Shown here: positions 35,118 through 56,250 of the stretch, piece by piece
Layout: every line of letters begins with the position of its first letter
Position numbering within the stretch: position 1 is the first letter of the stretch
NCBI GenBank assembly: GCA_030536145.1
Contig: JAUNQN010000004.1
Location: 34,239 to 98,238 of the forward strand
Source of the DNA: Akkermansia sp.
GTDB taxonomy: Bacteria; Verrucomicrobiota; Verrucomicrobiia; Verrucomicrobiales; Akkermansiaceae
Direction: 5' to 3'
Length of the DNA: 64,000 nucleotides
Notes under the pieces: model-generated
Told to the model about the DNA's origin: nothing
The model's input: only the letters and a program-made list of their open reading frames with translations
Databases searched by the model: none
Program-made: the position numbers and the translations under genes

Positions 35118-35126
35118 CGAAGGTGC

Positions 35127-40115: not shown

Positions 40116-43100
40116 ATGAACGAATATTTTTCCGTATCTCCGTCGGCTCCTGAACCGGATTCCACTTTCTCCAAGGTATACAACCGCCTGGATATGCGGT
40201 GCTACCGGGGTTACGGCGTGCCGCGCGATGCCGCTGTGGCTAGTTCCGCAGGGTGGTATGCCCGTGCGGCGGGGCAGGGGGATGTGATGGCCCAGGTTAC
40301 CCTGGCAGAGTGCTATGCAGCGGGGCAGGGTGTGGAGAAGGATGCCGCGCGGGCGGCAGAATGGTACGGAAAGGCAGCGGAGCAGGGGCATGCCGGGGCG
40401 CAGTATGCCATAGGCGATTGCTATGCCCGCGGCTTGGGTGTGGAGCAGGATGCCGCGAGAGCTGCGGAGTGGTACGCCAAATCCGCCATGCAGGGGGATG
40501 CCCGTGCGCAGTTTGCCATGGGAGAGTGCTGCAGCTCCGGGCAGGGAACCGCCTGTGACTTGGTTCAGGCGGCAGACTGGTATGCCAGGTCTGCCGCGCA
40601 GGGGTATGCCCCGGCGCAGTATGCCCTGGGTGCCATTTGCTTGGAGGGCCGTGGCCTGCCGCAGGAGCCTGCCAGGGCGGTGGAATACCTGGTCAAGGCG
40701 GCGGAGCAGGGTTATGCGCCTGCGCAGTACCGCCTGGGCTGGTGCTGTGTGGAGGGCGTGGGGCGGGAGGCGGATGCCGCTGCGGGGGCAGACTGGTACG
40801 CCCGCGCCGCCGCCCAGGGCCATGCCAAGGCGGAGAACCGCCTGGGCCAGTGCTGCTATTATGGCATAGGCATGCCGCAGGATATGGAGAAGGCTGCGGA
40901 GTGGTACGCAAAGGCGGCAGGGCAAGGGCTTGCCGAGGCCTGCTTCAACCTGGGCCGCTGCTATGCCTACGGTGAGGGCGTGGCCCGTGATGCCGCCCGT
41001 GCCGTGGAGTGGTACGCCAAGTCTGCGGAGCAGGGCTATGCCCTGGCTCAGTATGCCCTGGGCCGGTGCTATGAGACGGGCGAGGGCGTGGCCGCCGATG
41101 CCGGGCAGGCCGTGGATTGGTACACGAAGGCCGCGGAGCAGGGAGATGCCCCCGCCCAGTGCAGGCTGGGGCTCTGCTATGCAGAGGGGCGCGGCGTGGA
41201 GCAGGATGCCGCCCGTGCCGTGGAATGGTATACGCGTGCTGCGGAGCAGGAGTATCCCAAGGCGCAATACGCCCTGGCCACCGCCTGTGCGCAGGGTGAC
41301 CTGCTGCCCCCGGATATGGAACAGGCGGTGTCATGGTACATGAAGGCCGCGGACCTGGGTTACGCGGAGGCCCAGTATGCGCTGGGCGCCTGCTATGCAG
41401 AGGGCGTGTGCGTACCGCAGGATTTGGTCATGGCCATGAATTGGTACACGAAGGCGGCAGAGCAGGGGCATGCCCGCGCCCAGTACACCCTGGGCCGCTG
41501 CTGTATGACCGGGCTGGGCGTGGAGCATGATGCCGCCAAGGCCGCCGGCTGGTTTGAGCGCGCGGCCGTGCAGGGCTATGCCAAGGCGCAGAACCGCCTG
41601 GGGCTCTGCTACCATTCCGGGTACGGCGTGCCGCTGGATATTGCCCGTGCCGCAGAGTGGTATGCCAAGGCTGCGGAGCAGGGCGATGCGGAGGCCCAGT
41701 ACAACCTGGGCCGCTGCTGCATGTACGGCGAGGGTGTGCCCGCCGATGCCGCTCGCGCCGTGGACTTGTACAGCCGGGCCGCCGGGCAGGGCTATGCCCT
41801 GGCCCAGCTGGCCCTGGGGGTGTGCTATGAGCGCGGTGACGGTGTGGAGCCGGATGCCGTGAAGGCGGCAGGATATTACGTGCAGGCGGCTGCCCAGGGG
41901 GTGGCGCGCGCCCAGTTCTGCCTGGGCATGTGCTACAAGGACGGGCGCGGCGTGGAGCAGAGCGACGAGAAGGCCGCAGAGCTGTACAGGCAGGCGGCAG
42001 AGGGCGGCTATGCGCGCGCCCAGTACACCCTGGGCAGGTGCTATATCAAGGGGGAGCTGTTCCCCGTGGATGCATTCCTTTCCGCAGACTGGTACCGGCG
42101 CGCGGCGGAGCAGGGCTTTGCCGATGCCCAGTACGAGCTGGGCTTGTGCTATGCCAATGGCGGCGCGCTGCCGCGCAACTGCATCCAGGCCGTGGAGTGG
42201 TACACCAAGGCGGCGGAGCAGGGGCATGTGGATGCCCAGTACGCCCTGGCCGCCTGCTGGCACCAGGGGCTGGGAACGCCGCGCGACAGCGAGAAGGCGG
42301 TGGAATGGTACACCCGCGCCGCAGAGCAGGGGCACGCCCGCGCCCAGTATGCGCTGGGTACCTGCTATGCCGGGGGCGACGGCGTGACGCAGGACCCCGC
42401 CCGCGCCGCAGAGTGGTATGCTATCTCCGCAGGCTGGGGCTATGCCCGCGCCCAGACCGCCATGGGCCGCTGCTGCCTGGACGGCGCCGGCGTGGAGCAG
42501 GATGCCGCCAAGGCGATGGAGTGGTTCCAGAAAGCCGCGGAGCAGGATTTCCCGGAGGCCCAGTACCAGCTCGGTCTTTGCTTCTTCCAAGGCATAGGCG
42601 TGGAGCAGGATGCCGCCCGTGCCGCAGAGTGGTATGCCAGGGCCGCGGAGCTGGGGCATGCAGAGGCCCAGTTCTGCATAGGCCGCTGCTGCTATTACGG
42701 GGAAGGCGTGGGGCAGGACTATGCCAAGGCTGCGGAATGGTACACCAGGGCAGCCGAGCAGGGAGTGCTCCTGGCCCAGTTCGCCCTCGGCGTGAGCTAT
42801 GAGCAGGGCCTCGGCATGGAGCCCGATGCCGCCCAGGCCGCCTTCTGGTATTCCCGTGCCGCAGAGCAGGGATACGCCCGAGCGCAGTTCAACCTGGCCC
42901 TTTGCTATGAGCAGGGGCGCGGTGTTTTCCCCAATCCATCACAGGCCGTGGCCTGGTACCTGAAAGCCGCAGGGCAGGATTACGCCCGAGCCCAGTACAA
43001 TCTGGGGCTCTGCTACGGCAAGGGAAACGGGGTCACGCAGGATGCCGCCGCCGCCGTGAAATGGTACACCAAGGCTGCGGAACAGGGCAACGCGGAGGCA

Positions 43101-43532
43101 CAGCTCACCCTGGGCTACTGTTATGCAGAGGGCGAGGGCGTGCCGCAAGACCCCGCCAAGGCCGTGGAATGCTACACACTGGCGGCGGAACAGGGCAATG
43201 CAGAGGCCCAGCTGGCCCTGGCCTGCTGCTACGCAGACGGCGATGGTACGCCCAAGGACCCCGCCAAGGCCGTGGAATGGTATACCAGGGCCGCGGAGCA
43301 GGGCAATGCCTGGGCCCAGTTTGTCCTGGGGGTCTGCCATGAGCAGGGCGTGCTGGTGGACCGGGATGCCGCCAAGGCTGCGGAGTGGTATGCCAAGGCT
43401 GCGGAGCAGGGGCATGCCGATGCCCAGCAGAGCCTGGCCCGCTGCTATGCGGAGGGCAACGGCGTGCCCCAAGATGCCGCCAAGGCCGCCGAATGGGCCG
43501 CCAAGGCCATCGCCGCACCCGCAGGGACCTGA
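40116..43532 (+). CDS. giant Sel1-repeat protein (30 tandem 36-aa repeats), no signal peptide seen
   Basis: 1138 aa from MNEYFSVSPSAPEP. I counted 30 consecutive units of the form A.(E/D)WY.KAAEQG.A.AQ..LG.CY..G.GV.QD...A. Confidence 0.88.
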   Translation: MNEYFSVSPSAPEPDSTFSKVYNRLDMRCYRGYGVPRDAAVASSAGWYARAAGQGDVMAQVTLAECYAAGQGVEKDAARAAEWYGKAAEQGHAGAQYAIGDCYARGLGVEQDAARAAEWYAKSAMQGDARAQFAMGECCSSGQGTACDLVQAADWYARSAAQGYAPAQYALGAICLEGRGLPQEPARAVEYLVKAAEQGYAPAQYRLGWCCVEGVGREADAAAGADWYARAAAQGHAKAENRLGQCCYYGIGMPQDMEKAAEWYAKAAGQGLAEACFNLGRCYAYGEGVARDAARAVEWYAKSAEQGYALAQYALGRCYETGEGVAADAGQAVDWYTKAAEQGDAPAQCRLGLCYAEGRGVEQDAARAVEWYTRAAEQEYPKAQYALATACAQGDLLPPDMEQAVSWYMKAADLGYAEAQYALGACYAEGVCVPQDLVMAMNWYTKAAEQGHARAQYTLGRCCMTGLGVEHDAAKAAGWFERAAVQGYAKAQNRLGLCYHSGYGVPLDIARAAEWYAKAAEQGDAEAQYNLGRCCMYGEGVPADAARAVDLYSRAAGQGYALAQLALGVCYERGDGVEPDAVKAAGYYVQAAAQGVARAQFCLGMCYKDGRGVEQSDEKAAELYRQAAEGGYARAQYTLGRCYIKGELFPVDAFLSADWYRRAAEQGFADAQYELGLCYANGGALPRNCIQAVEWYTKAAEQGHVDAQYALAACWHQGLGTPRDSEKAVEWYTRAAEQGHARAQYALGTCYAGGDGVTQDPARAAEWYAISAGWGYARAQTAMGRCCLDGAGVEQDAAKAMEWFQKAAEQDFPEAQYQLGLCFFQGIGVEQDAARAAEWYARAAELGHAEAQFCIGRCCYYGEGVGQDYAKAAEWYTRAAEQGVLLAQFALGVSYEQGLGMEPDAAQAAFWYSRAAEQGYARAQFNLALCYEQGRGVFPNPSQAVAWYLKAAGQDYARAQYNLGLCYGKGNGVTQDAAAAVKWYTKAAEQGNAEAQLTLGYCYAEGEGVPQDPAKAVECYTLAAEQGNAEAQLALACCYADGDGTPKDPAKAVEWYTRAAEQGNAWAQFVLGVCHEQGVLVDRDAAKAAEWYAKAAEQGHADAQQSLARCYAEGNGVPQDAAKAAEWAAKAIAAPAGT

Positions 43533-43613: not shown

Positions 43614-46600
43614 TTATCGGCGCCTGCGGCGGGCGGCCAGCGCGGCCAGGGCCAGCAAGGAGAACGTGCCCGTGGCGGGTTCCGGAACGTTGATTTCCGG
43701 GGTGTCTGCCCCCGCCGCGCCAAAGTACACTACGCCGCTCTTGAGTTTCAGCTCGCTGATGGTTACCTCTGTTTCACCCACGTTGCGCACCATGGTGGCA
43801 TTGGAGCTGTTCGAGATGTTCACGTCGTCGCCGAAGTTCACTGCCACGCAGTCTCCATCGCCTACCTGCATGCCGTCAAACATACTGGCATCGAACTTTA
43901 CGTTGGCCATGGTCAGTTCACAGTTGATCATGTTGCGCACGTCGAAGATGTAGCAGGTCCCCGTTTCCGTGTCCTGCGTGGTGTAGGCGGTCCCGGTGAG
44001 GTCGATGACCACGTTGCTGAGCGTGATGGCATGGCTGCCCGTGGAGATGCTCACATCTGCCGCCATGCCCACGTTTTCCACGCACAGGTTGTCATTGGAG
44101 ACGATATCCACGCCGCGCAGCATGCTTTCCACCGGGTTGGCGTCTGATGCCCCGGAGATGAGGTTGTAGGAAATAGTCAGTTTTTCCAGCTCGGCAGCCT
44201 TTGCCTCCCGGTTGGTGATGGACATGGCGGAGCTGCCCTGAGTGAATCTCACGCCGGTGGCGGTACTCTTGCTCTCCGCCTTGTCCGTGCCCAGCACCAC
44301 CTTGCCGGCAGAGCTGTCCAGCTTGCTGTCCTTGAACTCTATCTTCTTGCCCGCCTCCGCTGCCAGGTACAGGGTGCCCTTGTTCACCACGGCTGCCTTT
44401 CCGTCCGTGTTGCTGCCGAAGGATACGTCCCCGTTCCACGCAAATTCCGCCGTGGCTCCCTCTGCGTTGTACAGGTCGTTGCCCTCCTGGGCTGAGTTGC
44501 CGGAGAAGGTGACCTCCTTGTTGCCGGAGACGGAAAGGGCGCTTTCATTGTAGATGGCGCCGCCCTGCGCGGTTTTGTCTGCCGTGACGGAGTTGCCGGT
44601 GAAGCGGACGACCTGGTTCTCTCCCGAAATCTCCAAGGATGATTCCTGGGCCAGGTGGATGGCTCCGCCGCGTGCCACGCCTTCATGAACGGGGGTGGAG
44701 GCCGTGGCGGAGTTGCCGGTGAAGATTACTTCCCGGTTGTCGCAGATGCTGCCTTGTGCTCCGTATCTGCCGTTTTCGCCAACGTTCATGGTATCCAGGA
44801 ACAGGGCACCGCCGCGGGCAAAGGCGGCAGTGTCGTTTGTGCTGTCCTGCGGGTCTGTGAATTTCGCGGTGGCACTGTTGGCATGGAACACCACACTATC
44901 GTTCCCTTGGATGCTCATGGATGGGATGGCGTAGAGGAAAGAACCATCGGACTGGAGGTAGCTTGTACTCAGGCCGTCAAACTTGACAGCCAATGCACCG
45001 CCGGAGGCATGGCTGCCCTGGATGTATTCTTTTAGCCTGGTGTCGTAGTAGTAGTTTCCGGGGTTGTTGACCTCCACGGAGTTGTTGCTGAACTCTATAT
45101 TGTGGTTCCTGTCCAGCTCGATATACATGGCTGCCAATCCGCCGCCGCAGCCGAACACGTCCTTGCCGCTCACGGAGTTGCCGGAGAAGGTGATGCCGGC
45201 ATTGTCGTTCATGTAGGCGCGTTCCAGGGCATAGGCTCCGCCGCCGTGTACATGGGTGCCCTCTACCCGGTTGTTTGAGATGAGGACTTGCCCGCTGGAC
45301 TTGATGGAGAAGGAGTCCTCCGAGCCAATGCCTCCGCCGCCGTATGCGGAGAATTTTCCCCAATCGTCCGCCATTGTGTTGGAGATGGTTGCTTGGTTGC
45401 CGCTGATATTTACATCACCGCCGCCCTTGATTTCCACATAGGATTTGGCGGAAATGCCGCCACCGGTGCCGATGTACTTGGCATTGGTGACGGAGACCTC
45501 TCCGCCGTGGATATAGAGCTGCCCCTCTGCCACCACCCCCCCGGCCTGCCAGCGCCCGCCGCCTGCTACCTCCAGCCCGCCGTTCAGCAGAGCCATGGCA
45601 CCGTCTGCCACTTTGAACATGGGGGAAAGCGGGTCGGCTGTGTAGGAAACGGAAATCTTGGCATCCCTTTCCGTGGTAAACACAATGGCTGCAGGTGTTT
45701 GGGTCCCCTCGTACGTGCCGCCACCTATGCACAGTGTGGAATCGGTAAAGGTGGCAGATTGGGTGAGGGTGCAGGTTTGGTTCACTTGGTCGCTGATACT
45801 TGCTACACTGGTTTGCGATGCTCTCTCAGCCACCTTTTTCCCTGTGGTGTGTGATGTTTCGGGTGTATCGATGTAGGAGACATCGTAAAGCATGTAATTG
45901 TACATGGAATACCAGCTGCCGTACCGATCGTTGCCAATCGTGACTGTGCCATCGGCCTCCTCTTTCAAGGTGAGAATGATGGCTCCATACTGCTTGTCAT
46001 CGGAATCCGTGACAATCAGGCCGGTGATATTGCCCTTGTCATCGGTCTCATACCCCCAGCAGGTAATGGCATGCATGCCTGAGTAGTACCTGTCGTTATG
46101 GCATACTGACAAGTTGACCGCCTGCCCTTGGGTGGAGAATGCCTTTTGCAGGGTGCTGTCGATGATAGACTTGTTGGTCTTCAGCCCCTTGTCGATAAAC
46201 AGGGAATAGAATGAAGCGTCTTGCAATCCGGAGGCATAGGCAGGCTGGGTACTGCCGAAGATTTTCGTGTAATAGCCGCCGGAATTTTCATCCTTGAGGG
46301 AGCTGCCATAGGGTACGTATCTCCCGCCTGTCATCCACCAGGAGTATGCACTGTACACATAGCCGCTGCTTTCCGTCCAGCTTGCCAACAACTCGTCGTA
46401 CACTGCCAGGGAATCCGTGCCTGCAGGTTCTGTGTAGCCTGTTGTCACGCCCATGGCCGGGTCCGTTCCCTGGTCGCGGAAGTTGTAATAGGTATCCTGC
46501 CAGTACTGTATGACGTTGGAGGCTGCCGCAGCCCAACACATCACATAATCGTTCCGGTATCCTTCTGCTTTATACGCAGGAAGCGAAGCATCAGCGCTGT

Positions 46601-46748
46601 ACGTCAGTTTGCCGTTGTCATACACATTGCCGGAGACAATGGTGCAGTCTGCCTTTGCCGCAGGGGAGAGCGCGGCGAGCAGGAGTGCCATGGAAAGGGA
46701 ACAAATCTTCACACCCGTGTTTATAGCTGTTATAGGGTAGGATGTCAA
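43614..46748 (-). CDS. IdeS/Mac-like cysteine protease domain + long beta-helix repeat region + PEP-CTERM anchor
   Basis: 1044 aa. It has YVMCWAAAASNVIQYWQ and MHAITCWGYETDDKGNITGLIVTDSDD (Asp at His+22 and His+24). The C-terminus is VPEPATGTFSLLALAALAARRRRR. The start is uncertain (46748, or the Met at 46691). Confidence 0.78.
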   Translation of the reverse strand: MTSYPITAINTGVKICSLSMALLLAALSPAAKADCTIVSGNVYDNGKLTYSADASLPAYKAEGYRNDYVMCWAAAASNVIQYWQDTYYNFRDQGTDPAMGVTTGYTEPAGTDSLAVYDELLASWTESSGYVYSAYSWWMTGGRYVPYGSSLKDENSGGYYTKIFGSTQPAYASGLQDASFYSLFIDKGLKTNKSIIDSTLQKAFSTQGQAVNLSVCHNDRYYSGMHAITCWGYETDDKGNITGLIVTDSDDKQYGAIILTLKEEADGTVTIGNDRYGSWYSMYNYMLYDVSYIDTPETSHTTGKKVAERASQTSVASISDQVNQTCTLTQSATFTDSTLCIGGGTYEGTQTPAAIVFTTERDAKISVSYTADPLSPMFKVADGAMALLNGGLEVAGGGRWQAGGVVAEGQLYIHGGEVSVTNAKYIGTGGGISAKSYVEIKGGGDVNISGNQATISNTMADDWGKFSAYGGGGIGSEDSFSIKSSGQVLISNNRVEGTHVHGGGAYALERAYMNDNAGITFSGNSVSGKDVFGCGGGLAAMYIELDRNHNIEFSNNSVEVNNPGNYYYDTRLKEYIQGSHASGGALAVKFDGLSTSYLQSDGSFLYAIPSMSIQGNDSVVFHANSATAKFTDPQDSTNDTAAFARGGALFLDTMNVGENGRYGAQGSICDNREVIFTGNSATASTPVHEGVARGGAIHLAQESSLEISGENQVVRFTGNSVTADKTAQGGAIYNESALSVSGNKEVTFSGNSAQEGNDLYNAEGATAEFAWNGDVSFGSNTDGKAAVVNKGTLYLAAEAGKKIEFKDSKLDSSAGKVVLGTDKAESKSTATGVRFTQGSSAMSITNREAKAAELEKLTISYNLISGASDANPVESMLRGVDIVSNDNLCVENVGMAADVSISTGSHAITLSNVVIDLTGTAYTTQDTETGTCYIFDVRNMINCELTMANVKFDASMFDGMQVGDGDCVAVNFGDDVNISNSSNATMVRNVGETEVTISELKLKSGVVYFGAAGADTPEINVPEPATGTFSLLALAALAARRRRR

Positions 46749-46961
46749 GTGCGCGTTTCCGGGGGATAAATCGGAGGTTTGCAGGGGCGTTTTATGGGTA
46801 AGTTCCTAGTTTTCAGGGTAATGTGTAAAATGGGAAAGCGCCGGGGGAGGAAAATCTGAAAGTGCGTATCCAATATGCACGGTATGTGTAAGTCTTTGAT
46901 AGTAAATATCCCCAAAGGGTGGTTTTGCGGGAAATTGAAAAAAACGGAAAAAGATGGCCGA

Positions 46962-48017
46962 ATGGAGTCAACTACCGTGAATGAAAGAGAAAAGGACTAT
47001 GAGCAGCTGCTGCGCGGCACAGGGCTGACCCTGATGGAATGTGTGTGCCTGGGCAAGAGCCTGAGTGAACAGAGGGCGGAGCTGGATCTGCCGCCGGAGC
47101 TGAGCCTGGTGCGTGATGCCAACCTGTACGGCAACGCGCTGCGGCAGTGGGTGGAGATGCAGCAGAGCCGGAGTTTCCGGGAGGTGGCGCGGCTGCATGT
47201 GGAAGACAAGCGGAACAAGCGCAGCCGCACGCGCAGGGAGTGCAGCGAGATGCTGGCGCGGATGATGCGGGAGGTCCCCGGTCTGGCGGGGCAGATGGTA
47301 CGGAGTATAACCACGGAGTATTGCCGCCAGGTGATAGGGCGGGTGTTTGAGACCCAGGCCATGCGGAACAAGGCCCGGCGTATCCTGCACAATTTTTTCG
47401 AGACCTGCCGGATTAACGGCTGGTGCGGGAAAAACCCCGTGGCGGATATACACTACGCCGCCGCAGAGGAGAGTACCATCCATGTGCTCAGCCTGCCGCA
47501 GATAGGGAGATTGTTGCAAACGGTGTACAAGCCGGAGCACCGGGATTGTGCCGCAGCCGTGGGGCTGATGCTGTGGTGTGGCATACGCCCGTATGAGGTG
47601 GCGCGCCTGCAGTGGGGTGATGTGGACCTGGCGGAGCGTGTGGTGTTTGTAAGCCCGCGGCACAGCAAGACCGGCGGTGCGCGGCAGGTGCCCCTGCGCG
47701 CGCCGGTGCTGCGGCTGCTGCGCCGGGAATCTGCCGCCCGTGCGGCGGGGGGCAGGATTGTGCCGCGCGACTGGACCCGGCGCTGGAAACGCCTGCGCCG
47801 GGCGGCAGGGTTTGCCGTGTGGCGGGCGGATACGCTGCGCCACACATTCGCCAGCTACCATTTCAAATTCTTCCAGGATGCCGGGCAGTTGCAGTGGGAG
47901 ATGGGCCATACCAGTGCCGCCCAGCTGCGCAGCCGCTACCTGAACATGCGCGGTTTTACCCGTGCGGAGGCTGCGCGGTTCTGGCACCTCCGCCCGGAGC
48001 TGGAGCCTGCGGGGTAA
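46962..48017 (+). CDS. tyrosine recombinase / phage-type integrase
   Basis: About 351 aa from MESTTVNERE. It has GIRPYEVARLQWGDVD (box I Arg), HSKTGGARQVPL, LRHTFASY, GH and RSRYLN (catalytic Tyr region). Confidence 0.85.
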   Translation: MESTTVNEREKDYEQLLRGTGLTLMECVCLGKSLSEQRAELDLPPELSLVRDANLYGNALRQWVEMQQSRSFREVARLHVEDKRNKRSRTRRECSEMLARMMREVPGLAGQMVRSITTEYCRQVIGRVFETQAMRNKARRILHNFFETCRINGWCGKNPVADIHYAAAEESTIHVLSLPQIGRLLQTVYKPEHRDCAAAVGLMLWCGIRPYEVARLQWGDVDLAERVVFVSPRHSKTGGARQVPLRAPVLRLLRRESAARAAGGRIVPRDWTRRWKRLRRAAGFAVWRADTLRHTFASYHFKFFQDAGQLQWEMGHTSAAQLRSRYLNMRGFTRAEAARFWHLRPELEPAG

Positions 48018-48073: not shown

Positions 48074-48340
48074 TCAGCCCTTGATGGAGGAGGAGGGCTT
48101 GAATGTAACGGTGGAGCTGGCGGGAATCTCCATGGTCTCACCGGTACGGGGATTGCGACCCTTGCGGGCAGGACGGTTCTTGGTCTCGAAGGAGCCGAAA
48201 CCCACGAGCTGGACCTTCTCCTTGGCCACGGACTTGATGATGGCGGCGAGAGTGGCGTTCAGGGCGTCTGCGGCAGCCTGCTTGGTGGCCTCCGGGCCAA
48301 GCTCCTTCTGGATAACGTCGATAAGCTGAGTCTTGTTCAT
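48074..48340 (-). CDS. hup: HU-family nucleoid-associated DNA-binding protein
   Basis: 88 aa from MNKTQLIDVIQKEL. It has GFGSFETKNRPARKGRNPRTGETMEIPA (the HU beta-arm). Confidence 0.92.
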   Translation of the reverse strand: MNKTQLIDVIQKELGPEATKQAAADALNATLAAIIKSVAKEKVQLVGFGSFETKNRPARKGRNPRTGETMEIPASSTVTFKPSSSIKG

Positions 48341-48453: not shown

Positions 48454-49035
48454 TCAGGGGGAGAAAGCCAGGGCACCCATGAATCCCGGTGCCGGGGAAA
48501 AGAGCTCCACCTGCGGCGCATCCGGGAATTGCGGGACAATGCGGCCTGCATCATACAGGAATGGGAACCGCCCCTGAGCGTGCCAGATGCCGGAGCCGGC
48601 GTGCTTGACCAGGGCCTCTGCGGCGCACCAGCATGCATAGAACTCCTGCTGCGGGCAGCCGCGCTCCATGAAGGCGGCCAGCTGCGGTGCGGCCATGAAC
48701 CGCTCCGCCAGGGCGGCAAAGGGGCGCGGGCGCATGTACTCCACATCCACGCCTATTTCCCGGTGGTGGAAAGCCAGGCACAGGCAATCACGGGAGTGGC
48801 TCATGTTGAACGGCTGCGGGGGGAAGTGCGGCTTGCCGTTCTCCCCGTATTGCAGGCGTATCCCCTGCACCTGCAGCCCGGTGAGCCGTGCCAGCTCCCG
48901 CCGCAGGAGCATGCGGCGTGCCAGGTAGGGCGCGCCGTGGCGGGCGTATGCCTCCTGCTCATGCGCATCCAGCAGGGCGGCATCCGCCGGGGCTGCGGGG
49001 GGGATTTGGCTGCTGTTGTAAACCAGGTAGTGCAT
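48454..49035 (-). CDS. Sfp/EntD-type 4'-phosphopantetheinyl transferase
   Basis: 193 aa. It has GKPHF, FNMSHSRD, IGVDVE and WCAAEALVKH motifs. Its start overlaps the upstream stop (TGATG). Confidence 0.85.
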   Translation of the reverse strand: MHYLVYNSSQIPPAAPADAALLDAHEQEAYARHGAPYLARRMLLRRELARLTGLQVQGIRLQYGENGKPHFPPQPFNMSHSRDCLCLAFHHREIGVDVEYMRPRPFAALAERFMAAPQLAAFMERGCPQQEFYACWCAAEALVKHAGSGIWHAQGRFPFLYDAGRIVPQFPDAPQVELFSPAPGFMGALAFSP

Positions 49036-49532
49036 CAGAGCGGAAGGATGGCGGCGGTGTTGGCCGCCGTATCATACACGGCCAGGGAGGGGTGGCCGCC
49101 GCGGCCCAGGATTTCCCCGGGATTGCACACCAGGGTGCTGCCGCTGCAGCGGTTGAAGGCCTGGTGGGTGTGGCCGAAGAATACGGCATCATACCTGCCG
49201 AACATGAGCGCCTTTTCCGCCTGGGCGGGCAGGTGGGTGAAATAGACCCGGCGCCCGCCCAGCTCCAGCTCCCCGGAGAAGCCGTGCAGCGTGGTGCAGG
49301 GGTAGGATTCCGCCTGGGTGCGGAAAGAGTCGTGCTCAAACTCGTTGTTGCCGAACACCAGGTCCAGCTGCAAATGGGCGGGCCAGGCGGCACGCAGGGC
49401 GGCAAAGGTGGCGCTGCGCACCATGTCCCCCATGCAGAGCATGCGGGTGCAGCCCTGCTGCAGGGCCAGCTCCACGGCGCGCTGCATGTTGGCCGTGTTG
49501 TCGTGTATATCTGATACCAGTGCTGCGCGCAT
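49035..49532 (-). CDS. YfcE/MJ0936-type metallophosphoesterase
   Basis: 165 aa. It has SDIHDN, MGDMV, GNNEFE and FGHTHQ motifs. The start is 6 nt after the upstream stop. Confidence 0.85.
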   Translation of the reverse strand: MRAALVSDIHDNTANMQRAVELALQQGCTRMLCMGDMVRSATFAALRAAWPAHLQLDLVFGNNEFEHDSFRTQAESYPCTTLHGFSGELELGGRRVYFTHLPAQAEKALMFGRYDAVFFGHTHQAFNRCSGSTLVCNPGEILGRGGHPSLAVYDTAANTAAILPL

Positions 49533-49538
49533 GGCTTG

Positions 49539-51689
49539 CTATTTCTTCTTTTCAGCGGTAAAGAGGGGGGAGAAGGGGATGGCACCCTGCATCTCCTCCC
49601 CGTGGCGGGCGGTGCTCAGCCCCTCTTCGGTCAGGAACCACACCATCTGCCTGCCCTGCGGGCGCAGGCTGTAGCAGGGGCTGCCGTCCGGCTGCACGAA
49701 ACCGCAGAAACGCGGGCTGATATCCATGAACCCGGTAAAGTTCTCTGCCATTTCCCCGCTGTAGTCCGCGCGGGTGTGCTTGCCGAACCATTCTGCAAAG
49801 GCCTTCTCCGCGCGCTCGTGCGCGGGGTCTGCATGCAGCCAGCAGTTGCCGTCCAGCTCCACGCCGCAGCGCTTGCGCAGCTGGTCGAACTCACGCATAT
49901 CCGCCTGCAGGGAGGGGGAGTAGGGCAGGCCGGTGAGCATGCGCTGCCCGCTGCCTTTCACCATGTCCAGCAGCTTGCCGTACACATAGGCGCGCGCCAG
50001 CGCCGGGCATTCCGGGGCCTGGCAGCGTATCACGGCGGCCAGGGCCTTGCCGTAGTTCAGCCCGGCATAGAATTCCGTGCGGTCCTGCGTGTGCAGGCAG
50101 GCGGCCAGGGGGGAGGGGTCTATGCGGCGGGAGCTCACCCAGTGCGGGTCCGGCCAGGTGGTGGCGGCATCGCTGCCGGTGGGCTTGCCGGGGTCCAGGT
50201 TGGAACGCAGGAAATGCACCCGGCCGTCCTTGACCTCCGGTGCGGCCTCGGAGAAGAAGGTGTCTCCCTTCTCATTGCTGATGGCGTACAGCGGGGTGGA
50301 GAGGGCGGTGCAGCCCAGCAGGTCGTCCGCCGCATGCGTTTCCGCCGTGGTGGCGGGAAACTCCGGGGAGATGGCGGATTCCCCCTGCACCAGGGTCCTG
50401 CGGGCGGCGGCCAGCAGGTTGTGGGGAATGTTCTTGCCGCTGCTGATGAGCTCCCGCAGCATGGTGCCGTGGTCCGGCAGGGTGGCGGCGGTCTCCTTGG
50501 CGGCGGCCAGGGCGGTGTAGTATTTTGGGGAAACCAGGGCCAGCTGGTGGCGGTAGCTGCCGTAGTCCTGCGCAGCGGCCAGCCTGGCCAGGCTCTCCTG
50601 CAGGCGGCGGTTCTCCCGCAGCATGGCGTTCACTTTCTTGAGCGCCCGTTGCGCGGGTTCCACCAGCGCCTCGTCCTCCATGCCGGTGCTGTGGGAATCT
50701 GCAAAAATCAGGCAGCGTTCCATCAGCTCGGAGCGCAGGCTCTCCAGCTTCTGCTCGTCCGCCTTCAGGTCGTTCCCCGGCTCCACCATGGAGGGCAGGG
50801 GCTCTGCCAGCTTGCGCATCAGCTGCATGCGCTGGGCGGCCAGCTGCTGCTTTTCCGCCTCGCAGAACTTGGCCCAGTCCTTGCGGAGCTTGTCGGCGGA
50901 CTTGGGCAGGGCATCCAGGCTCTGCTCAATCTCCATGCGGCGTATGGGACCCATCTCTGCCACGGAAAGCTTTCCGGCGCCGATGCGCTGCATCAGCCCG
51001 GCAAGCTCCTTCATGGTGGCTTCCTCCCTGCGGATGCGGGTGCGTGCCGCGTTTACCAGGAAATCCATGCGCTTGCAGAAGAAGCGGTTGAATCCCGTAT
51101 CCACCGCTTTCAGGCAGGCGGCCAGCTCCGGGGTATCCCCCGTGCGCAGGCTGGCTTGCAGGCGGTCTGCGCTCTGCTCCGCATGGCGGCCCAGCAGCAC
51201 CCAGGTGAGCACCAGCAGCGCGGCCGCCCCTGCGGCTATGCCGCCCGCCACCACCTGGCGGCGCATGGGCTTGGCACGGCGTGCCAGCTCACGCTCCAGC
51301 GCTTGGCTGTACTGGCGGTAGGTGCGCTGCCCCTCTGCATCCAGCAGGTGCCCGGCCAGTTTTTCCTTGCGGGTGATTTCCTTGCGGGCGCGCTTGAGCC
51401 TGGCCCGTTTCCACCCGACAAAGAGCTGGGGATCCTGCCGGAAGGCCTGCAGGGCATCCGTGAGCCGTTCCAGGTTCTGGTCATCCTTTGCCTGCTCCTT
51501 GCGGTGGAAAATCGCCAGGGTCTGGAGCGGCTGGCCGGAATCCAGGCGCTCCAGTTCTGCGCGCGCCACCGCGTGGTTGGGGTTCTTGCGCAGGATGTCT
51601 ATCAGCACGTTGCGGGCGGCTGCCATGTCCCCCTGCGCGGCGTATTTGCGCAGGGCCTGAAAGGCGGGGTCTGCTTTTCTTCTGCTCAT
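49539..51689 (-). CDS. large single-pass membrane protein with TPR-like N-terminus (GTPase-operon gene 3)
   Basis: About 716 aa from MSRRKADPAFQ. It has a TPR-like AAQGDMAAARNVLIDILRKNPNHAVARAEL segment and a TM helix VVAGGIAAGAAALLVLTWVLLG after RRAKPMRR. About 540 aa follow the TM. Its ATG overlaps the upstream stop (ATGA at 51686-51689). Confidence 0.7.
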   Translation of the reverse strand: MSRRKADPAFQALRKYAAQGDMAAARNVLIDILRKNPNHAVARAELERLDSGQPLQTLAIFHRKEQAKDDQNLERLTDALQAFRQDPQLFVGWKRARLKRARKEITRKEKLAGHLLDAEGQRTYRQYSQALERELARRAKPMRRQVVAGGIAAGAAALLVLTWVLLGRHAEQSADRLQASLRTGDTPELAACLKAVDTGFNRFFCKRMDFLVNAARTRIRREEATMKELAGLMQRIGAGKLSVAEMGPIRRMEIEQSLDALPKSADKLRKDWAKFCEAEKQQLAAQRMQLMRKLAEPLPSMVEPGNDLKADEQKLESLRSELMERCLIFADSHSTGMEDEALVEPAQRALKKVNAMLRENRRLQESLARLAAAQDYGSYRHQLALVSPKYYTALAAAKETAATLPDHGTMLRELISSGKNIPHNLLAAARRTLVQGESAISPEFPATTAETHAADDLLGCTALSTPLYAISNEKGDTFFSEAAPEVKDGRVHFLRSNLDPGKPTGSDAATTWPDPHWVSSRRIDPSPLAACLHTQDRTEFYAGLNYGKALAAVIRCQAPECPALARAYVYGKLLDMVKGSGQRMLTGLPYSPSLQADMREFDQLRKRCGVELDGNCWLHADPAHERAEKAFAEWFGKHTRADYSGEMAENFTGFMDISPRFCGFVQPDGSPCYSLRPQGRQMVWFLTEEGLSTARHGEEMQGAIPFSPLFTAEKKK

Positions 51690-54445
51690 TCGGAAAGGGC
51701 GGGTTGCAGCTGGAAGCACCATTTCAAGCCTCCCTCCTCAGGGGGCTCCAGGCGCTCCAGCACCAGTTTGTAGCTCACATGCGGTGCCGGGGTGCCCTGC
51801 CTGCCCTTGGCGGCGGTGCGCTCGCAGAAATCCCGCAGCTCGTCCTCCAGTGCGGCGCAGATGGCGCGGCGCAGCATGGCGCGCTCCTCCGGCCGGGCCA
51901 GCATGCGGCACACGGCGGCGCAGCGCGCCGGGGCATCCGCGCTGGTGCCGTGCGCCTGGTCTACCGTGAGCAGCAGCTCCGGCTGGGCGGCCAGCAGCAG
52001 GCTCATCTCCGCGTTCAGCACGGGGTTGGCCAGCATGCGCACGTACGCCTTGCTCATTTCCTCCATGTGGCCCGCATCTGCGGTGGTGTCCATCTCGCAG
52101 GTCATGTTGTACAGGGTGGCGCGCAGGGGAATGCCCGTGCCGTAGTCTGCCCCGGCCAAGCGGTTGAAGAGCGCATCCACCAGCTGGCGCATGTAGGGCG
52201 CGGCGTTGATACGGCAGTTGAAGATGGTGGTGTCTCCCTCCACGGAGCTGCTGTCGCACACCCATTTGGAGGAGACATTGGCGGCGGGCGTGAGGGCCTG
52301 GAGCCTGTTCTCACCCACCACCACGGGGAGCTGCAGGGTGAAGGCGGTGCCGGCCACGGCGGCCAGGGCGGGCAGGCGGGTCAGGCGCTCCGGGGTGAGC
52401 CGCAGGCCGGGCATGCCGTGCAGCCCGCGCAGCCCGGGTATGGCCGTGGAGCTGCGCTGCACGTCCGCCTCAGTGATATGCAGGTCCAGCGGCGCCAGGG
52501 ACGGGCGGTCGTTCAGCGGAATCTCGATGTGCGGTGTCAGCACCATCGTGTGGGCCACGTTGTCATGGTCTGCATCTGCGGTGATACAGAGCACGGCGGG
52601 CCTGCCGCCGCTGGTGATGGAGCGCAGGATACCCGCATCCGCCTCTATCACGATGGGCGGGGTCAGGTGGCTGGGGCGCCCGTTCTCCTCCAGGGAGAGG
52701 GTGACGCGGCTTTCCGAATCCTGGTGCAGGCGCAGGCTCTGGCCGCCCGGCTGCAGGCGGATGCGCTGGGTGGTGTCCAGCTTGCCTGTGGGGGAGAAGG
52801 TGGCTACCACCAGCTCACCGGAGGTGATGACCTGTGAGAGGGAGATGTGCTTGCAAACCTCCGGCAGCGGTGAGCCGGAGATGGCGGTCTGCACCTTGCG
52901 CTCCGCCGCAGGCACCGCGGGGCGCGCGGGTTCCTCCTGCTTGGCGATGGTCACCGTGTCTGCACCGGGGAGCTGCGGGAAGATGTTGGCAAAGTACGGG
53001 GAGCGGGAGCGCAGCAGGGCATCCCGCAGCAGCGGGCGCTCCGCCAGGAACGTGTCCCACTCGTCCGCCTCTGCGCGGGAAAGGTGCTCCGTGCCGCCGC
53101 GTGCCATGGCCTGCTGCATGTACAGGGCCACCAGCGCACCGGGGGCTATGCCCAGCATCTCCGCGCAGTCTGCCATGCGGCGCAGGTTGCCCACGCGGTG
53201 GTCTGCCGTGCGCAGCAGGCGGCAGCACTCCCGGATGGCCCCTGATGTCACGTCGGACATCCTGCCGTTCCCCTGCGCCGCTTGGGCGGAGATGGCATCC
53301 AGGCGGGCGGCGGTGTAGGCGGCGTCATACGGGCGCTCTGCCAGCCCGGTAAGCTCTGCAATGAGTGCGCCCGGCCCGGCGGGTTCCACGGTGGTGGCGG
53401 CAGCGGCGGGCTTGCCCTTGGCTCCGTGTTGCACGCCCAGCACCCAGCCTGCCGCGCAGAGCACGCAGGCGGCGGAGGCGGTGATGGCCACCATGCGGCG
53501 TTGCCTGCGGCGGCGGTATTCCTTGGGGCAGGGTGGCTTTTCCGCCAGGGGCGGGGCGGTTTCCTTGGGCGTGGCGGTGGTGCCGCAGCTGCAGGGGACC
53601 GGGGTGCCGGGCTGCTCCTTGGCCGTATCCCGGCTTTCCGGGCCGGGCTGGGGCTTGGTGTCCACGGGCATTTCCGGCAGCTCCATGGCGGGGCTTATCT
53701 CCAGCATGGGGTGGCTGGCGCGCCGGGCACGCTCTATCAGGCGGTAGTTGTCCGTGGCGCAGACAATACGGTTGGTATCCGCAAAGGAATCACAGTCCTC
53801 CCCGCAGGTGGTGAAGGTGTGCCCCCAGCCGCGCAGGTGGGTGAGCCAGTCCGCCTCATGCAGCAGGGCCAGTATATCCAGCCCGGCGGTGCCGGGTGCC
53901 ACCAGCACCAGGCTGTCGTTCTCATACGGGGGCGTGCAGAAGGCGCGCGCGTTGCTCTTGTGCCCGGTCAGGCGCTTCCATGCCGGCTGGGTGGAGGCAT
54001 CCGGTATGTCATCCGTGCAGAAGGCGGGGGCAGCGGTCAGCACGCGCGGCGGCCCCTCCCAGCGCTGCTGCCAGAGCCCGCGGTTCTCCATGGCCAGCAT
54101 GATTCCGGCCGGCGTGGGGCGGGCGGGATTGCGGCACAGGGCGCACACCTCGTCGTTCCCCAGGATCAGGTGGTGGGCTATGTGGCAGTTGCGGCCGCTG
54201 TAGTCCGCCCCGGCCATCTGCACGCGCGTCATCACGTGGTAGGTGGTGCCGCGGTATTCCAGCACGCGGTAGGAATACTGCGGCCCCGGCAGGGACTGGG
54301 CGGATTTCTCACGGAACCCGCTCAGGGCGGTCAGCTTGTCGCACAGGATGCGTGATATCCCCTCGCTGCGGGCCACGGTTCCGTAACCCGGCTGGTCGCA
54401 GTCCAGTAGGTGCTTGGCGCTGGTATGGATGAGCTGCAGGGGCAT
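51686..54445 (-). CDS. large single-pass membrane protein with GAP1-like (GTPase-associated protein) N-terminal domain (GTPase-operon gene 2)
   Basis: 919 aa. The N-terminus is MPLQLIHTSAKHLLDCDQPGYGTVARSEGIS. The TM helix MVAITASAACVLCAAGWVLGV follows RRRRQRR. About 580 aa follow the TM, with no motif I recognise. Confidence 0.72.
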   Translation of the reverse strand: MPLQLIHTSAKHLLDCDQPGYGTVARSEGISRILCDKLTALSGFREKSAQSLPGPQYSYRVLEYRGTTYHVMTRVQMAGADYSGRNCHIAHHLILGNDEVCALCRNPARPTPAGIMLAMENRGLWQQRWEGPPRVLTAAPAFCTDDIPDASTQPAWKRLTGHKSNARAFCTPPYENDSLVLVAPGTAGLDILALLHEADWLTHLRGWGHTFTTCGEDCDSFADTNRIVCATDNYRLIERARRASHPMLEISPAMELPEMPVDTKPQPGPESRDTAKEQPGTPVPCSCGTTATPKETAPPLAEKPPCPKEYRRRRQRRMVAITASAACVLCAAGWVLGVQHGAKGKPAAAATTVEPAGPGALIAELTGLAERPYDAAYTAARLDAISAQAAQGNGRMSDVTSGAIRECCRLLRTADHRVGNLRRMADCAEMLGIAPGALVALYMQQAMARGGTEHLSRAEADEWDTFLAERPLLRDALLRSRSPYFANIFPQLPGADTVTIAKQEEPARPAVPAAERKVQTAISGSPLPEVCKHISLSQVITSGELVVATFSPTGKLDTTQRIRLQPGGQSLRLHQDSESRVTLSLEENGRPSHLTPPIVIEADAGILRSITSGGRPAVLCITADADHDNVAHTMVLTPHIEIPLNDRPSLAPLDLHITEADVQRSSTAIPGLRGLHGMPGLRLTPERLTRLPALAAVAGTAFTLQLPVVVGENRLQALTPAANVSSKWVCDSSSVEGDTTIFNCRINAAPYMRQLVDALFNRLAGADYGTGIPLRATLYNMTCEMDTTADAGHMEEMSKAYVRMLANPVLNAEMSLLLAAQPELLLTVDQAHGTSADAPARCAAVCRMLARPEERAMLRRAICAALEDELRDFCERTAAKGRQGTPAPHVSYKLVLERLEPPEEGGLKWCFQLQPALSE

Positions 54446-54461
54446 GGCGGCGCGGGCGGAA

Positions 54462-56198
54462 TCAGCTGTTCTGTGAGCAGGGGAGCAGTGAGGGAGCCAG
54501 GCAGCTCAGTGCCCACAGCGTGGAATCCGTGACGCGGAACGGGTGTACCTGGCCGGATGCCGGGCCGATGAGGCGGCTGCCGCTGTGCTCGTCCGTGAAC
54601 TCCACCGGGGATTCTCCCAGGGAGGAGGCGGCAAAGTAGCGCACGTTGGAGGAGATGGCCTCCGCATTCGTGCAGATGTGCGGGGCTATGTTGAAGATGA
54701 ACTGGCGCAGGCGCGCGGAGTTTGCCTGGATAAGCTCCGGCATGAACATGCCGTTGCGCGTGGCGGGCAGCAGCGGCTCCGGCCCCAGCAGGTGGGCCCA
54801 GGTATCGCTCTTGCCGATGATGACGGCCAGCGGTACGTCCAGCTTCTTGCCCGGCGGCAGGTTCAGCTTGGTGCGCACGCGCATCTCAGATTCCGCCAGC
54901 AGCAGGGCCTGCCGGCCCGGGGGATGCAGGTTCAGGCGCAGCTGCGGGTCCTCGTTGTCATGCAGCAGCTTGCGGAACCCGGGATTGGCCGTGGGGTCGA
55001 AGAGGAACAGGATGGCATCCGCCACGCTCAGGTGGGCGCCGCCGGGGTTGATTTCAGAGTCCCGCCCCGGCTGGAAATCCTCTCCCGCATTGTCGTACAG
55101 CACAATGGAGTGGGTCTCGGAATCCTTGTTCAGGTTGTAGATGAAGGGGCGGGGCATGTTGGCCTGCACGCCGTGGCGCCATACCTTGTGGTACAGGCGG
55201 CCCTGCAGCTGGGTCTTGCCGATGTAGGCCTCCTGCGGGGTCTGGGCGGAGAACAGGCGCATGCGCATGTCGTTCAGCGGCTCGTTCATCACCGGGTCCG
55301 CATCACGGAACGGCAGGCCGAAATCCCGCGGGAACTCCAGCTCCAGCTCCCGCACCAGGGAGGTCAGGAAATACGACTTGCCCGCCGCCGGCACACCCAC
55401 CAGGGAGATGAGGTGCTGCCTGGTCTGCGTGAAGAAGGGCGGCAGTTTCTCATGGCAGTGCGGGCAGGCAAAATCCGGGCAGGGGGAGCCTTTGGCATCC
55501 ACCGGCAGGCCCTGGCAGTTGCGCTCCGTGGGCTTGAACCGCAGCATGGCGTCCTCCCCCAGCACGGAGTCCCCGCACAGGGCGGGGTGCACGGCTATGG
55601 CCAGCTCCTGGCCGGCGTAGAAATGCTCCCAGCAGTTCGGGCAGCGCAGCAACTGCCCGTCATCCCCGTCAGGCGCCCCGGCGGCAGCATCCTTCTGCGC
55701 GGCAAACACCGCCACCGCTATCAGGTCCTTCAGGTAGAACGCGCAGTTGTCCAGCCCCTGGAAAGTGGCCAGCATCTCCCCCGGGAACTCGCGGGAGGCC
55801 TCCGGCATATCCCCCAGGGAATACGGACCGTACCACTCGTCCTTCTCCGGGCTGTACAGGAACCACACGTTCGGGTCGTACTGGTCGAACGCAGGCTTGT
55901 TGGCCGCATCCCCGTACCAGCACACAAAACACCCGCAATCCAGCACAAAGAGGTACATGGTCTCCTTGCGTATCACCACGTCCGTGTTCATGGGTATGCC
56001 GTTCAGGGAGTATTTCTCCACATGCCCGTGAGGGAAAAAGCGGCAGGTCTCGTCCCGCTGCGCAAAGGAACCGCCGTTCTCCGCCTGCATGCGGATGCGG
56101 AAGGTGTTCTTTTCCCCCGCGCCGATGGTCATGAATACGCCGTCGGATGACCAGAGCTTGGCGGAAAGGCTGTCGTAGATGAAAAGTTGGTTGTTCAT
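54462..56198 (-). CDS. FHA-like / split zinc-ribbon / P-loop GTPase (GTPase-operon gene 1)
   Basis: 578 aa from MNNQLFIYDS, with an AGGAGA SD 8 nt upstream. G1 is GVPAAGKSY, G3 is LYDNAGED and the G4-like motif is IIGKSD. It has CPNCW...CPHCH cysteine pairs and an N-terminal roughly 95-aa FHA-like segment. Confidence 0.8.
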   Translation of the reverse strand: MNNQLFIYDSLSAKLWSSDGVFMTIGAGEKNTFRIRMQAENGGSFAQRDETCRFFPHGHVEKYSLNGIPMNTDVVIRKETMYLFVLDCGCFVCWYGDAANKPAFDQYDPNVWFLYSPEKDEWYGPYSLGDMPEASREFPGEMLATFQGLDNCAFYLKDLIAVAVFAAQKDAAAGAPDGDDGQLLRCPNCWEHFYAGQELAIAVHPALCGDSVLGEDAMLRFKPTERNCQGLPVDAKGSPCPDFACPHCHEKLPPFFTQTRQHLISLVGVPAAGKSYFLTSLVRELELEFPRDFGLPFRDADPVMNEPLNDMRMRLFSAQTPQEAYIGKTQLQGRLYHKVWRHGVQANMPRPFIYNLNKDSETHSIVLYDNAGEDFQPGRDSEINPGGAHLSVADAILFLFDPTANPGFRKLLHDNEDPQLRLNLHPPGRQALLLAESEMRVRTKLNLPPGKKLDVPLAVIIGKSDTWAHLLGPEPLLPATRNGMFMPELIQANSARLRQFIFNIAPHICTNAEAISSNVRYFAASSLGESPVEFTDEHSGSRLIGPASGQVHPFRVTDSTLWALSCLAPSLLPCSQNS

Positions 56199-56221
56199 GC
56201 GGGGAATCTCCTGTGCCTGCA

Positions 56222-56250
56222 ATCTTACCCCAAATGCCCCCGTGAGTCAA
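56222..56250 (-). promoter_or_regulatory. promoter of the GTPase operon (TTGACT-N17-TAAGAT)
   Basis: Minus strand: -35 TTGACT (56250-56245) and -10 TAAGAT (56227-56222). The predicted leader is about 17-20 nt and contains AGGAGA. Confidence 0.6.

Follow-up and report, generated by a model that had tools for sequence, protein, structure and literature searches.

A five-gene GAP1-N2-type DO-GTPase operon of Akkermansia and its possible role as a transmembrane GTPase switch

Five tightly packed genes under one conserved promoter

We analyzed a stretch of 64,000 nucleotides (nt), referred to as the window, from the Akkermansia sp. assembly GCA_030536145.1 (contig JAUNQN010000004.1, positions 34,239 to 98,238 of the forward strand), in which five consecutive genes form an operon; all coordinates are positions within this 64-kb window, and all features of the operon lie on the minus strand. 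In order of transcription, the genes encode P1, a cytoplasmic protein of 578 amino acids (aa) combining an FHA-fold domain, a small alpha-beta domain, a zinc ribbon with four Cys residues, and a DO-GTPase2 domain (54462-56198); P2, a bitopic protein of 919 aa carrying a GAP1-N2 domain (51686-54445); P3, a protein of 716 aa with a TPR-like head, a transmembrane (TM) helix, and a helical part predicted to be periplasmic (49539-51689); a 165-aa metallophosphoesterase of the MJ0936/YfcE type (gene 4, 49035-49532); and a 193-aa 4'-phosphopantetheinyl transferase (PPTase) of the Sfp type (gene 5, 48454-49035). As gene 1 is a DO-GTPase2 and gene 2 starts with GAP1-N2, the operon is a GAP1-N2-type GTPase-centric system, a type that was predicted computationally by Kaur, Burroughs, Iyer, and Aravind in 2020 (PMC7159879).

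Genes 1 and 2 are separated by 16 nt, genes 2 and 3 overlap by ATGA (51686-51689), genes 3 and 4 are 6 nt apart, and genes 4 and 5 overlap by TGATG (49033-49037). Start codons were set by alignments of orthologs (MN.QLYIYD for P1 and MS[RK]R.PDPA for P3). The start of P3 is the ATG overlapping the upstream stop codon, which gives 716 aa, and a 727-aa reading from 51722 is also open; the public gene call for P3 in a second strain of the same species is likewise 716 aa. AGGAG is found 10 nt upstream of the ATG of P1.

A sigma-70-type promoter, TTGACT-N17-TAAGAT, lies at 56222-56250. The consensus scan returned a single site of this kind in the 8.7-kb region against 0.9 expected in shuffled sequences, which is not significant alone. 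An alignment of 15 orthologous loci showed no variation in CTTGAC and hardly any in TA.AAT, with an aligned spacing of about 17 nt between the two, and the promoter is convincing because these boxes are conserved where the rest of the upstream DNA is not alignable. No terminator-like site was found between the PPTase gene and the HU gene (48074-48337); the first such site follows HU (48047-48022). Rfam gave no match in the operon region.

The genome has a G+C content of 65%, and long antisense open reading frames (ORFs) are common in such DNA. The ratio of nonsynonymous to synonymous substitution rates (dN/dS), calculated between the window and the second strain of the same species, was 0.07 for the GTPase, 0.12 for P2, 0.15 for P3, 0.40 for the phosphoesterase, and 0.25 for the PPTase. 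The five genes are thus real and not chance ORFs, as they have full-length homologs and dN/dS values of 0.07-0.40. An original prediction, made from the DNA letters of the window, had described five minus-strand ORFs, their four junctions, and the promoter; the ORFs were all present at the coordinates given above, the junctions read as described, and the promoter gained the support of the 15 loci. The same prediction of two large proteins, each with one TM helix after an Arg cluster, was likewise borne out (RRRRQRR in P2 and RRAKPMRR in P3, with 579 and 549 residues beyond the membrane, respectively).

The GTPase and its GAP1-N2 partner

Relatives were collected from one genome per species. 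A relative of the GTPase was present in 252 stretches, and the best 80 loci were analyzed, all of which came from metagenome-assembled genomes (MAGs) of Akkermansia, Akkermansiaceae, or Verrucomicrobiales, mostly from animal guts. The operon hosts are unicellular gut bacteria. The GTPase was 99% identical to MDO5449630.1, from a MAG labeled Akkermansia sp., and the named homologs of the GTPase were all annotated as "hypothetical protein". No ortholog of the GTPase was identified in the Akkermansia muciniphila type strain, the named relatives listed being MAG proteins.

P1 matched the Pfam family DO-GTPase2 (PF19993) with 29.7 bits, against a gathering threshold (GA) of 27, over 55 residues only, and therefore the assignment was tested in three further ways. 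Among 18 orthologs compared with Pfam, DO-GTPase2 was matched in 12 and DO-GTPase1 also in seven. A tblastn search with P1 led to a gene of 24% identity carried by a megaplasmid of Rhodococcus opacus, the product of which fits the full DO-GTPase2 model; hhalign of a 96-sequence P1 profile against this Rhodococcus DO-GTPase2 gave a probability of 99.1 and an E-value of 1e-18 over 270 columns at 30% identity, and aligned the motifs CPxCHxKLPP, Walker A, D.AGE, ADAILFLFDP, KxD, and FFAvSALG.SP. In the AlphaFold2 (AF2) model of P1 (pLDDT 92.1, pTM 0.71), the C-terminal 320 residues resembled the TRAFAC GTPases eRF3, EF-Tu, G-alpha-s, GBP1, atlastin, Rab, and Era (Foldseek; E-values of 8e-6 to 2e-4). 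No solved structure had detectable sequence similarity to the P1 family. P1 is a member of the DO-GTPase2 family and not of a new GTPase family; it had been predicted to be novel, which does not hold because the Pfam family to which it belongs was described in 2020.

The TRAFAC GTPase domain of P1 (aa 259-578; 54465-55424), delimited by its motifs and by Foldseek, is intact in the window, with Walker A GVPAAGKS (aa 268-275), Walker B YDNAGE (aa 368-373), and G4 GKSD (aa 462-465). In an alignment of 96 orthologs, the Walker A glycines G268 and G273 and the G4 residues K463 and D465 were invariant, K274 was nearly so, and the D-x-A-G-E form of Walker B, with its conserved Glu, was kept in at least 66. 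The zinc-ribbon region (aa 183-250; 55449-55652; CPNC...CPHC) was recognized from C186, C189, C245, and C248, which were invariant in the 96 orthologs and make up a single four-Cys site, not two ribbons; CPxCHxKLPP is the second zinc knuckle and is the part that aligns with the Rhodococcus DO-GTPase2. No second GTPase paralog was found in the operon or elsewhere in the window.

At the Walker B column (aa 368-373 in the window), at least eight of the 96 orthologs carry Asn in place of Asp and have lost the Gly and Glu (for example YNNTAI and YNHAA). These orthologs retain Walker A, the KxD motif, and the zinc-ribbon Cys residues, and judging from these residues, GTP is probably bound without being hydrolyzed in such lineages.

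The N-terminal beta sandwich of P1 (aa 1-96; 55911-56198), modeled with pLDDT above 93, was matched by Foldseek to the FHA domain of Rv0020c (3po8; probability 1.00, TM-score 0.77, root-mean-square deviation 2.3 A over 96 columns) and to that of Ki67 (TM-score 0.67-0.71). Pfam FHA (PF00498) was matched in neither P1 nor the 18 orthologs. Of the FHA signature, G26, S44, and N66 are kept and the His is absent; as modeled, the domain is of the FHA fold and atypical in sequence. The earlier description of gene 1 as an FHA-like, Zn-ribbon, P-loop GTPase is thus upheld by Pfam, hhalign, and the AF2/Foldseek comparison, with the FHA part holding at the level of the fold.

The partner that had been predicted to be GAP1-like is P2, of which aa 4-100 matched GAP1-N2 (PF20013) with 42.8 bits in the full protein and 46.6 bits in the isolated head, against a GA of 24. 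GAP1-N2 was also matched in 17 of 31 orthologous P2 heads (best E-value of 1.6e-18). The conservation profile delimits a cytoplasmic head of aa 1-250 (53696-54445), consisting of GAP1-N2 and about 150 further conserved residues, the invariant positions of which include TPAG (111-114) and GWG (206-208). The head is followed by an unconserved linker rich in Pro, Thr, and Cys, the Arg cluster, and the single TM helix (aa 318-340; 53426-53494); a hydropathy scan of the orthologs placed one TM helix at about aa 285-345. From the Arg clusters, both P2 and P3 are predicted to be oriented with the N-terminus inside and the C-terminus outside.

Beyond the membrane, P2 has a hypervariable ectodomain (aa 341-919; 51689-53425), which is the most variable part of the operon, with 15-23% identity to relatives or no detectable similarity. 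The total length of P2 ranged from 266 to 1174 aa across relatives, and the ectodomain was absent in some lineages. Within the species, the ectodomain had a dN/dS of 0.10, from only 36 substitutions between the two strains. None of 22 ectodomains matched a Pfam family, and the ectodomain profile gave one marginal match among solved structures, to an Ig domain of CEACAM1 (E-value of 0.0024).

Shortened forms of P2 were observed in several loci: the 266-aa form, ending right at the start of P3, is encoded in L006 (11763-12560) and at equivalent positions in L007, L008, and L010, and a 488-aa form in L005, L009, and L058. Most P2 orthologs carry a conserved acidic juxtamembrane motif, Y-x-Y-[TS]-E-x-x-D-x-x-x-[YF], located 15-25 aa N-terminal to the TM helix (PYKYTETPDEDVFNILP, HYHYTEEPDWLMYDV, and PYQFSEEPDEELYDL are examples; positions include aa 287 in L001, aa 294 in L011, and aa 299 in L037); P2 of the window and of its closest relatives is without it. 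Either the FHA domain or the TPR-like head of P3 could dock at this motif.

Conservation of the gene block, P3, and the two enzymes

Synteny was counted in those 73 related loci for which 7 kb or more of sequence was available downstream, and it greatly exceeded what chance would give. P2 was the next gene after the GTPase in all 73, the PPTase was present in 72, and P3 and the phosphoesterase were present in 66 each; the gene order was constant, with median gaps of 0-6 nt. The flanks of the block differed, falling into approximately 20-40 contexts in a rough clustering of flanking ORFs (for example, pgk and a response regulator, the ATP-synthase operon, an NTP-transferase, and panC). The block thus behaves as a unit, since it is kept in 66-73 of the 73 loci while its flanks vary. 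Across roughly 80 species-level genomes, the genes of the three large proteins stay together. A distant Akkermansiaceae genome (L078) has the GTPase and GAP1-N2 genes only, followed by tig-clpP-clpX.

In the window, the operon is surrounded by genes for ValRS, an M16 peptidase, a phosphate transporter, an M3 peptidase, panC, an ABC ATPase, a ClC channel, and HU. At 0.64-0.69, the G+C content of the operon differs little from that of most of the window (0.55-0.68 elsewhere), and there is no compositional anomaly. No assembly occurred twice among the 80 loci. Association with mobile elements was considered and rejected, as no phage homologs of the system were found and the only plasmid matches were distant ones on two Rhodococcus megaplasmids. 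All five proteins were searched against PADLOC-DB v2 and gave zero matches at E<=1, in agreement with the original prediction, which had found no named defense system to fit the gene content. Pfam recognized no toxin, nuclease, pore (SLATT), or peptidase domain in the operon proteins.

No model in Pfam, NCBIfam, or PADLOC matched P3. When 1.84 billion representatives were searched exhaustively with a profile, 109 relatives only were retrieved, approximately 70 of them full length; P3 is restricted to this lineage and is the founder of a previously undescribed protein family. The AF2 model of P3, built on eight sequences (a word-indexed search gave seven to eight homologs even with a 35-sequence profile), had a pLDDT of 75.6 and is mostly helical, with a TPR-like head in the cytoplasm and, beyond the TM helix, a long periplasmic part made of helices, a small beta barrel, and a mixed C-terminal domain. 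By sequence, the TM helix spans aa 146-167 (51189-51254), after RRAKPMRR; in the model, a helix spans 155-183 and is preceded by residues 140-155, which were modeled with low confidence. The fold had no match in PDB or BFVD at E<0.01, and only a weak TPR signal and a local SH3-like barrel were obtained. In the local Foldseek comparison, this barrel (aa 467-523; 50121-50291) resembled SH3-like lipoproteins of the YgdR/DUF903 type over about 60 residues (probability 0.97-0.99, TM-score 0.6-0.75, E>0.4). The possibility that P2 and P3 are paralogs was rejected, as there was no BLASTP match between them and the P3 profile matched no P2.

Profile searches also delimited a conserved C-terminal domain of P3 (aa 550-711; 49557-50042) with the motif P.LARAY...G..[FY]SPSL..D...F......GCW. 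Approximately 30 uncharacterized proteins of 850-1107 aa (P0202-P0230) have only these last 160 or so residues in common with P3, and they have TPR-like N-termini. The C-terminal domain looks like an undescribed domain family.

The last two genes had been predicted to encode a YfcE-type phosphoesterase and an Sfp-type PPTase, and both family and motif matches agree. Gene 4 matched Metallophos_2 with 89.9 bits and MJ0936 (PDB 2ahd/1s3l) with an E-value of 2e-11, and scored 43.7 bits against the YfcE model TIGR00040, under its cut-off of 56.25; the catalytic motifs DIH, GD, GNNE, and GHTH are present. Gene 5 matched ACPS (PF01648) with 42.5 bits and Sfp (1qr0) over aa 40-188 with an E-value of 8e-11, and has the Mg-binding motifs G-x-D-x-E and W/F-x-x-x-E-x-x-x-K as GVDVE and WCAAEALVK; its partial matches to HetI and AcpT were below the equivalog cut-offs. 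As a possible carrier-like target of the PPTase, CDSF in P2 was considered and rejected because it was not conserved. The literature search returned no account of MJ0936- or Sfp-type enzymes linked to a DO-GTPase operon, including the 2020 study (PMC7159879), and no Akkermansia transposon data on the PPTase.

Several further observations were made around the operon and in related loci. In L004/L046, the operon is followed at 17350-19644 by a stand-alone FHA protein (Yop-YscD_cpl and FHA) and two bactofilin genes, a neighborhood that was not present in the other loci inspected. In the window, the 1044-aa product of a minus-strand gene at 43614-46748 combines a cysteine protease domain of the Mac-1/IdeS-like kind (PF09028; 24.8 bits, cut-off 20.3) with Chlamydia-PMP repeats and a PEP-CTERM signal at its C-terminus; it may be a secreted immunoglobulin-degrading protease. 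A tyrosine recombinase gene (46875-48017, plus strand; Phage_integrase, 62.5 bits) lies between this gene and HU, as it does in the second strain (L088), and the 44-48 kb region has a lower G+C content (0.58). A plus-strand gene at 39870-43532 encodes a 1220-aa protein of 27 Sel1 repeats (877 bits). Three ORFs of 1137 aa (19550-22963, minus strand), 697 aa (24925-27018, minus strand), and 720 aa (34932-37094, plus strand) had no Pfam match at E<=1e-4, and the lowest G+C content of the window (0.55-0.57) was found at 20-24 kb.

Relation to known systems and possible functions

Kaur et al. described the GAP1-N2 systems as a Zn-ribbon GTPase with a downstream GAP1 protein, often with C-terminal TM segments, and inferred co-evolution of the pair and a membrane-proximal role (PMC7159879). 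They counted 904 GAP1-N2 organisms and reported the class in Verrucomicrobiae (PMC7159879); no Akkermansia or Verrucomicrobia entry was found in their supplement. A full-text literature search retrieved no paper on these systems besides this study. The resemblance to the GTPase-centered systems of Aravind and colleagues, which the original prediction had pointed out, was correct. The operon is like the GAP1-N2 class in its DO-GTPase2 TRAFAC GTPase with the Walker B Glu and an N-terminal zinc ribbon, in the GAP1-N2 protein with a TM segment directly downstream, and in the combination of a constant core with a rapidly varying non-enzymatic module.

The differences are also considerable. GAP1-N2 systems usually have two Zn ribbons, and 38% have paired paralogous GTPase genes (PMC7159879), whereas the operon has a single GTPase gene, the product of which contains one four-Cys ribbon and additionally carries an FHA fold. 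Neither GAP1-M nor GAP1-C nor an FNIII-repeat protein was detected; the tubulin, HSP70, and kinase themes are absent; and P3, the MJ0936-type phosphodiesterase, and the PPTase are found instead. The 2020 study does not mention PPTases, and FHA is unmentioned in its description of DO-GTPase systems (PMC7159879). The class is statistically tied to a multicellular habit (Table 1 of PMC7159879). The hosts of the operon, in contrast, are unicellular gut commensals. The FHA fusion, P3, the fixed linkage to a phosphodiesterase and a PPTase, and single chromosomal loci among housekeeping genes are new here.

The Rhodococcus opacus locus retrieved with P1, on pRho-G13 (NZ_CP110470.1, 555745-574647), shares the GTPase domain with the second zinc knuckle, and its cluster includes a GAP1-N2 protein of similar size (925 aa). 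However, this GAP1 protein has a detectable GAP1-M and is encoded upstream of the GTPase, the GTPase has 385 aa without FHA or middle domain, and the locus is situated near TerD/TerC on a 1.1-Mb linear plasmid and is without P3, phosphoesterase, and PPTase.

Three systems from other families can be compared with the operon. The conservons of Streptomyces (CvnA-D) are alike in outline, as one operon couples a membrane sensor to a cytoplasmic GTPase switch, but they are built from unrelated families (sensor-kinase-like CvnA, Roadblock CvnB, and Ras-like CvnD), and no sequence or domain match to conservon proteins was found in any search run on the operon. Eleos (the dynamin-like GTPase LeoA with LeoBC) likewise joins a large GTPase to membrane-associated partners but gave no PADLOC match here. 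The FHA domain of mycobacterial FhaA (Rv0020c, 3po8) docks on the phosphorylated juxtamembrane region of MviN and is a model for docking on a Thr/Pro-rich juxtamembrane linker such as P2 aa 250-317; FhaA and P1 have the fold alone in common, however, since P1 of the window is without the phosphothreonine-binding Arg and no kinase lies nearby.

From the family matches, motifs, modeled structures, conserved promoter, synteny, and non-mobile context, together with the description by Kaur et al., we consider that the operon is probably a chromosomal, vertically inherited variant of the GAP1-N2-class DO-GTPase systems and that it most likely works as a transmembrane GTPase switch. In the proposed mechanism, the GAP1 head of P2 would bind P1 and keep it at the inner membrane. 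A periplasmic or envelope cue would be sensed by the ectodomains of P2 and P3 and relayed to the P2 head, which would set the GTP/GDP state of P1. GTP-bound P1, probably a homodimer, might then use its FHA domain to dock a partner peptide, phosphorylated or not, and the output could, more speculatively, run through the phosphodiesterase and the PPTase.

Several findings weigh against such a switch or against single steps of it. GAP1-M and GAP1-C were detected neither in P2 (E<=1) nor in the 31 orthologous heads (E<=0.1), and P2 aa 100-250 could be a divergent GAP1-M; FNIII repeats were not matched by Pfam in P2, P3, or the 22 ectodomains. Binding of P1 by the P2 head is suggested only by co-occurrence and co-evolution at the family level, and no experimental study or solved structure was found for any member of the class. 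The Arg that follows the conserved Gly in FHA domains normally binds phosphothreonine; it is missing from P1 (IGAG) and present in only 14 of the 96 orthologs, and no Ser/Thr kinase motif was found in the window. Similarly, no carrier-protein-like target of the PPTase was found in P1-P3 or the window, and no ACP or AcpS motifs were found in the window. Four MAGs with a GTPase approximately 80-82% identical to that of the window encode the 266-aa P2, which has neither TM helix nor ectodomain, one clade is without P3 both in the operon and within 10 kb, and another clade is without the phosphoesterase. Because of these clades and the 266-aa P2, the ectodomains and the two extra parts cannot all be required by the core mechanism, and the GTPase-GAP1 pair makes up the irreducible core. 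Finally, the variability of the P2 ectodomain between species would also be expected from an arms race.

In another explanation, the operon would be an anti-phage or anti-invader conflict system: the P2 ectodomain would recognize the invader at the envelope, the GTPase would act as a threshold, and infection would be limited by an effector, with the phosphodiesterase, the PPTase, and an action of P2/P3 on the membrane as the candidates. The operon does belong to a class that Kaur et al. read as conflict systems, by prediction, and in the sister GAP1-N1 systems the most frequent effector is a phosphoesterase of the calcineurin type (PMC7159879). The combination of a constant core (GTPases 45-82% identical) with a fast-changing P2 module also fits. 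We nevertheless regard this explanation as unlikely. Envelope surveillance or signaling is more likely than a suicidal anti-phage function because there were no PADLOC, toxin, nuclease, SLATT pore, peptidase, or phage matches, the flanks are housekeeping genes and the operon has no compositional anomaly, no assembly recurs among the 80 loci and the window holds no second copy, purifying selection acts on the P2 ectodomain within the species (dN/dS of 0.10), and the hosts are unicellular in spite of the link of the class to multicellularity. The label "conflict system" is a prediction at the level of the class, and the local evidence leans away from a mobile defense island.

A housekeeping role of the operon, as a GTPase-regulated membrane scaffold in the envelope, cell shape, or division, comparable to the FHA-dependent control of the mycobacterial cell wall, appears improbable to us. 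Its conservation in at least 80 species-level genomes, with a GTPase relative in 252 stretches, the strong conservation of P1, and the best structural match of the FHA domain (Rv0020c/FhaA) would all suit such a role, as would the relative with an FHA protein and two bactofilins just downstream and the cytoskeleton-like assemblies hinted at by GAP1-N2 neighborhoods (Kaur et al. 2020; PMC7159879). When a housekeeping machine was sought, however, no known division, secretion, or cell-wall family was matched in Pfam, NCBIfam, or PDB. The TM helix and ectodomain of P2 can be wholly lost, the degenerate Walker B (Asp to Asn) in at least eight of 96 orthologs would be unusual for an essential machine, and the bactofilin neighborhood is not general.

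The place of the two enzymes is the more evenly balanced question, and we see little to choose between their being mechanistic partners of the switch and their being passengers. It is quite possible, though we would not wager on it, that the transcript carries two units, with genes 1-3 forming the GTPase system and genes 4 and 5 serving housekeeping (the PPTase acting, for example, on fatty-acid or other carriers). Both enzymes belong to widespread housekeeping-type families and have intact catalytic motifs, the GTPase-GAP1 pair of L078 and the clade without phosphoesterase do without one or both of them, no carrier-like target was found in P1-P3, and PPTases are not mentioned in the 2020 description (PMC7159879). 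Against this stand their retention (72 of 73 loci for the PPTase and 66 of 73 for the phosphoesterase), with gaps of 0-6 nt or overlapping codons despite differing flanks, and a linkage extending down to about 45% GTPase identity, which is hard to explain without selection on co-expression. In the boldest form of the partnership, the operon would not be a defense island but a core envelope-to-cytoplasm signaling pathway of Akkermansia-like gut bacteria, in which an FHA-DO-GTPase switched by a periplasmic cue gates both enzymes; the PPTase would add phosphopantetheine to a non-carrier protein, and the phosphodiesterase would remove it. We hold this to be a very long shot; if true, phosphopantetheinylation would here be a reversible, regulatory modification controlled by a GTPase.

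The Akkermansia-lineage version of the GAP1-N2 systems is a clean entry point for biochemistry because it is compact, occupies a single locus, has a conserved promoter, and has a confident GTPase model. It also challenges what has been expected of the class, since it occurs in unicellular gut commensals and in a housekeeping neighborhood, and its constant companions are two small metabolic-type enzymes, not toxins. A mechanistic link to the PPTase and phosphodiesterase, if real, would suggest a new output for bacterial GTPase switches, and if the system senses phage or host factors at the envelope, it would bear on the persistence of Akkermansia-like bacteria in animal guts.

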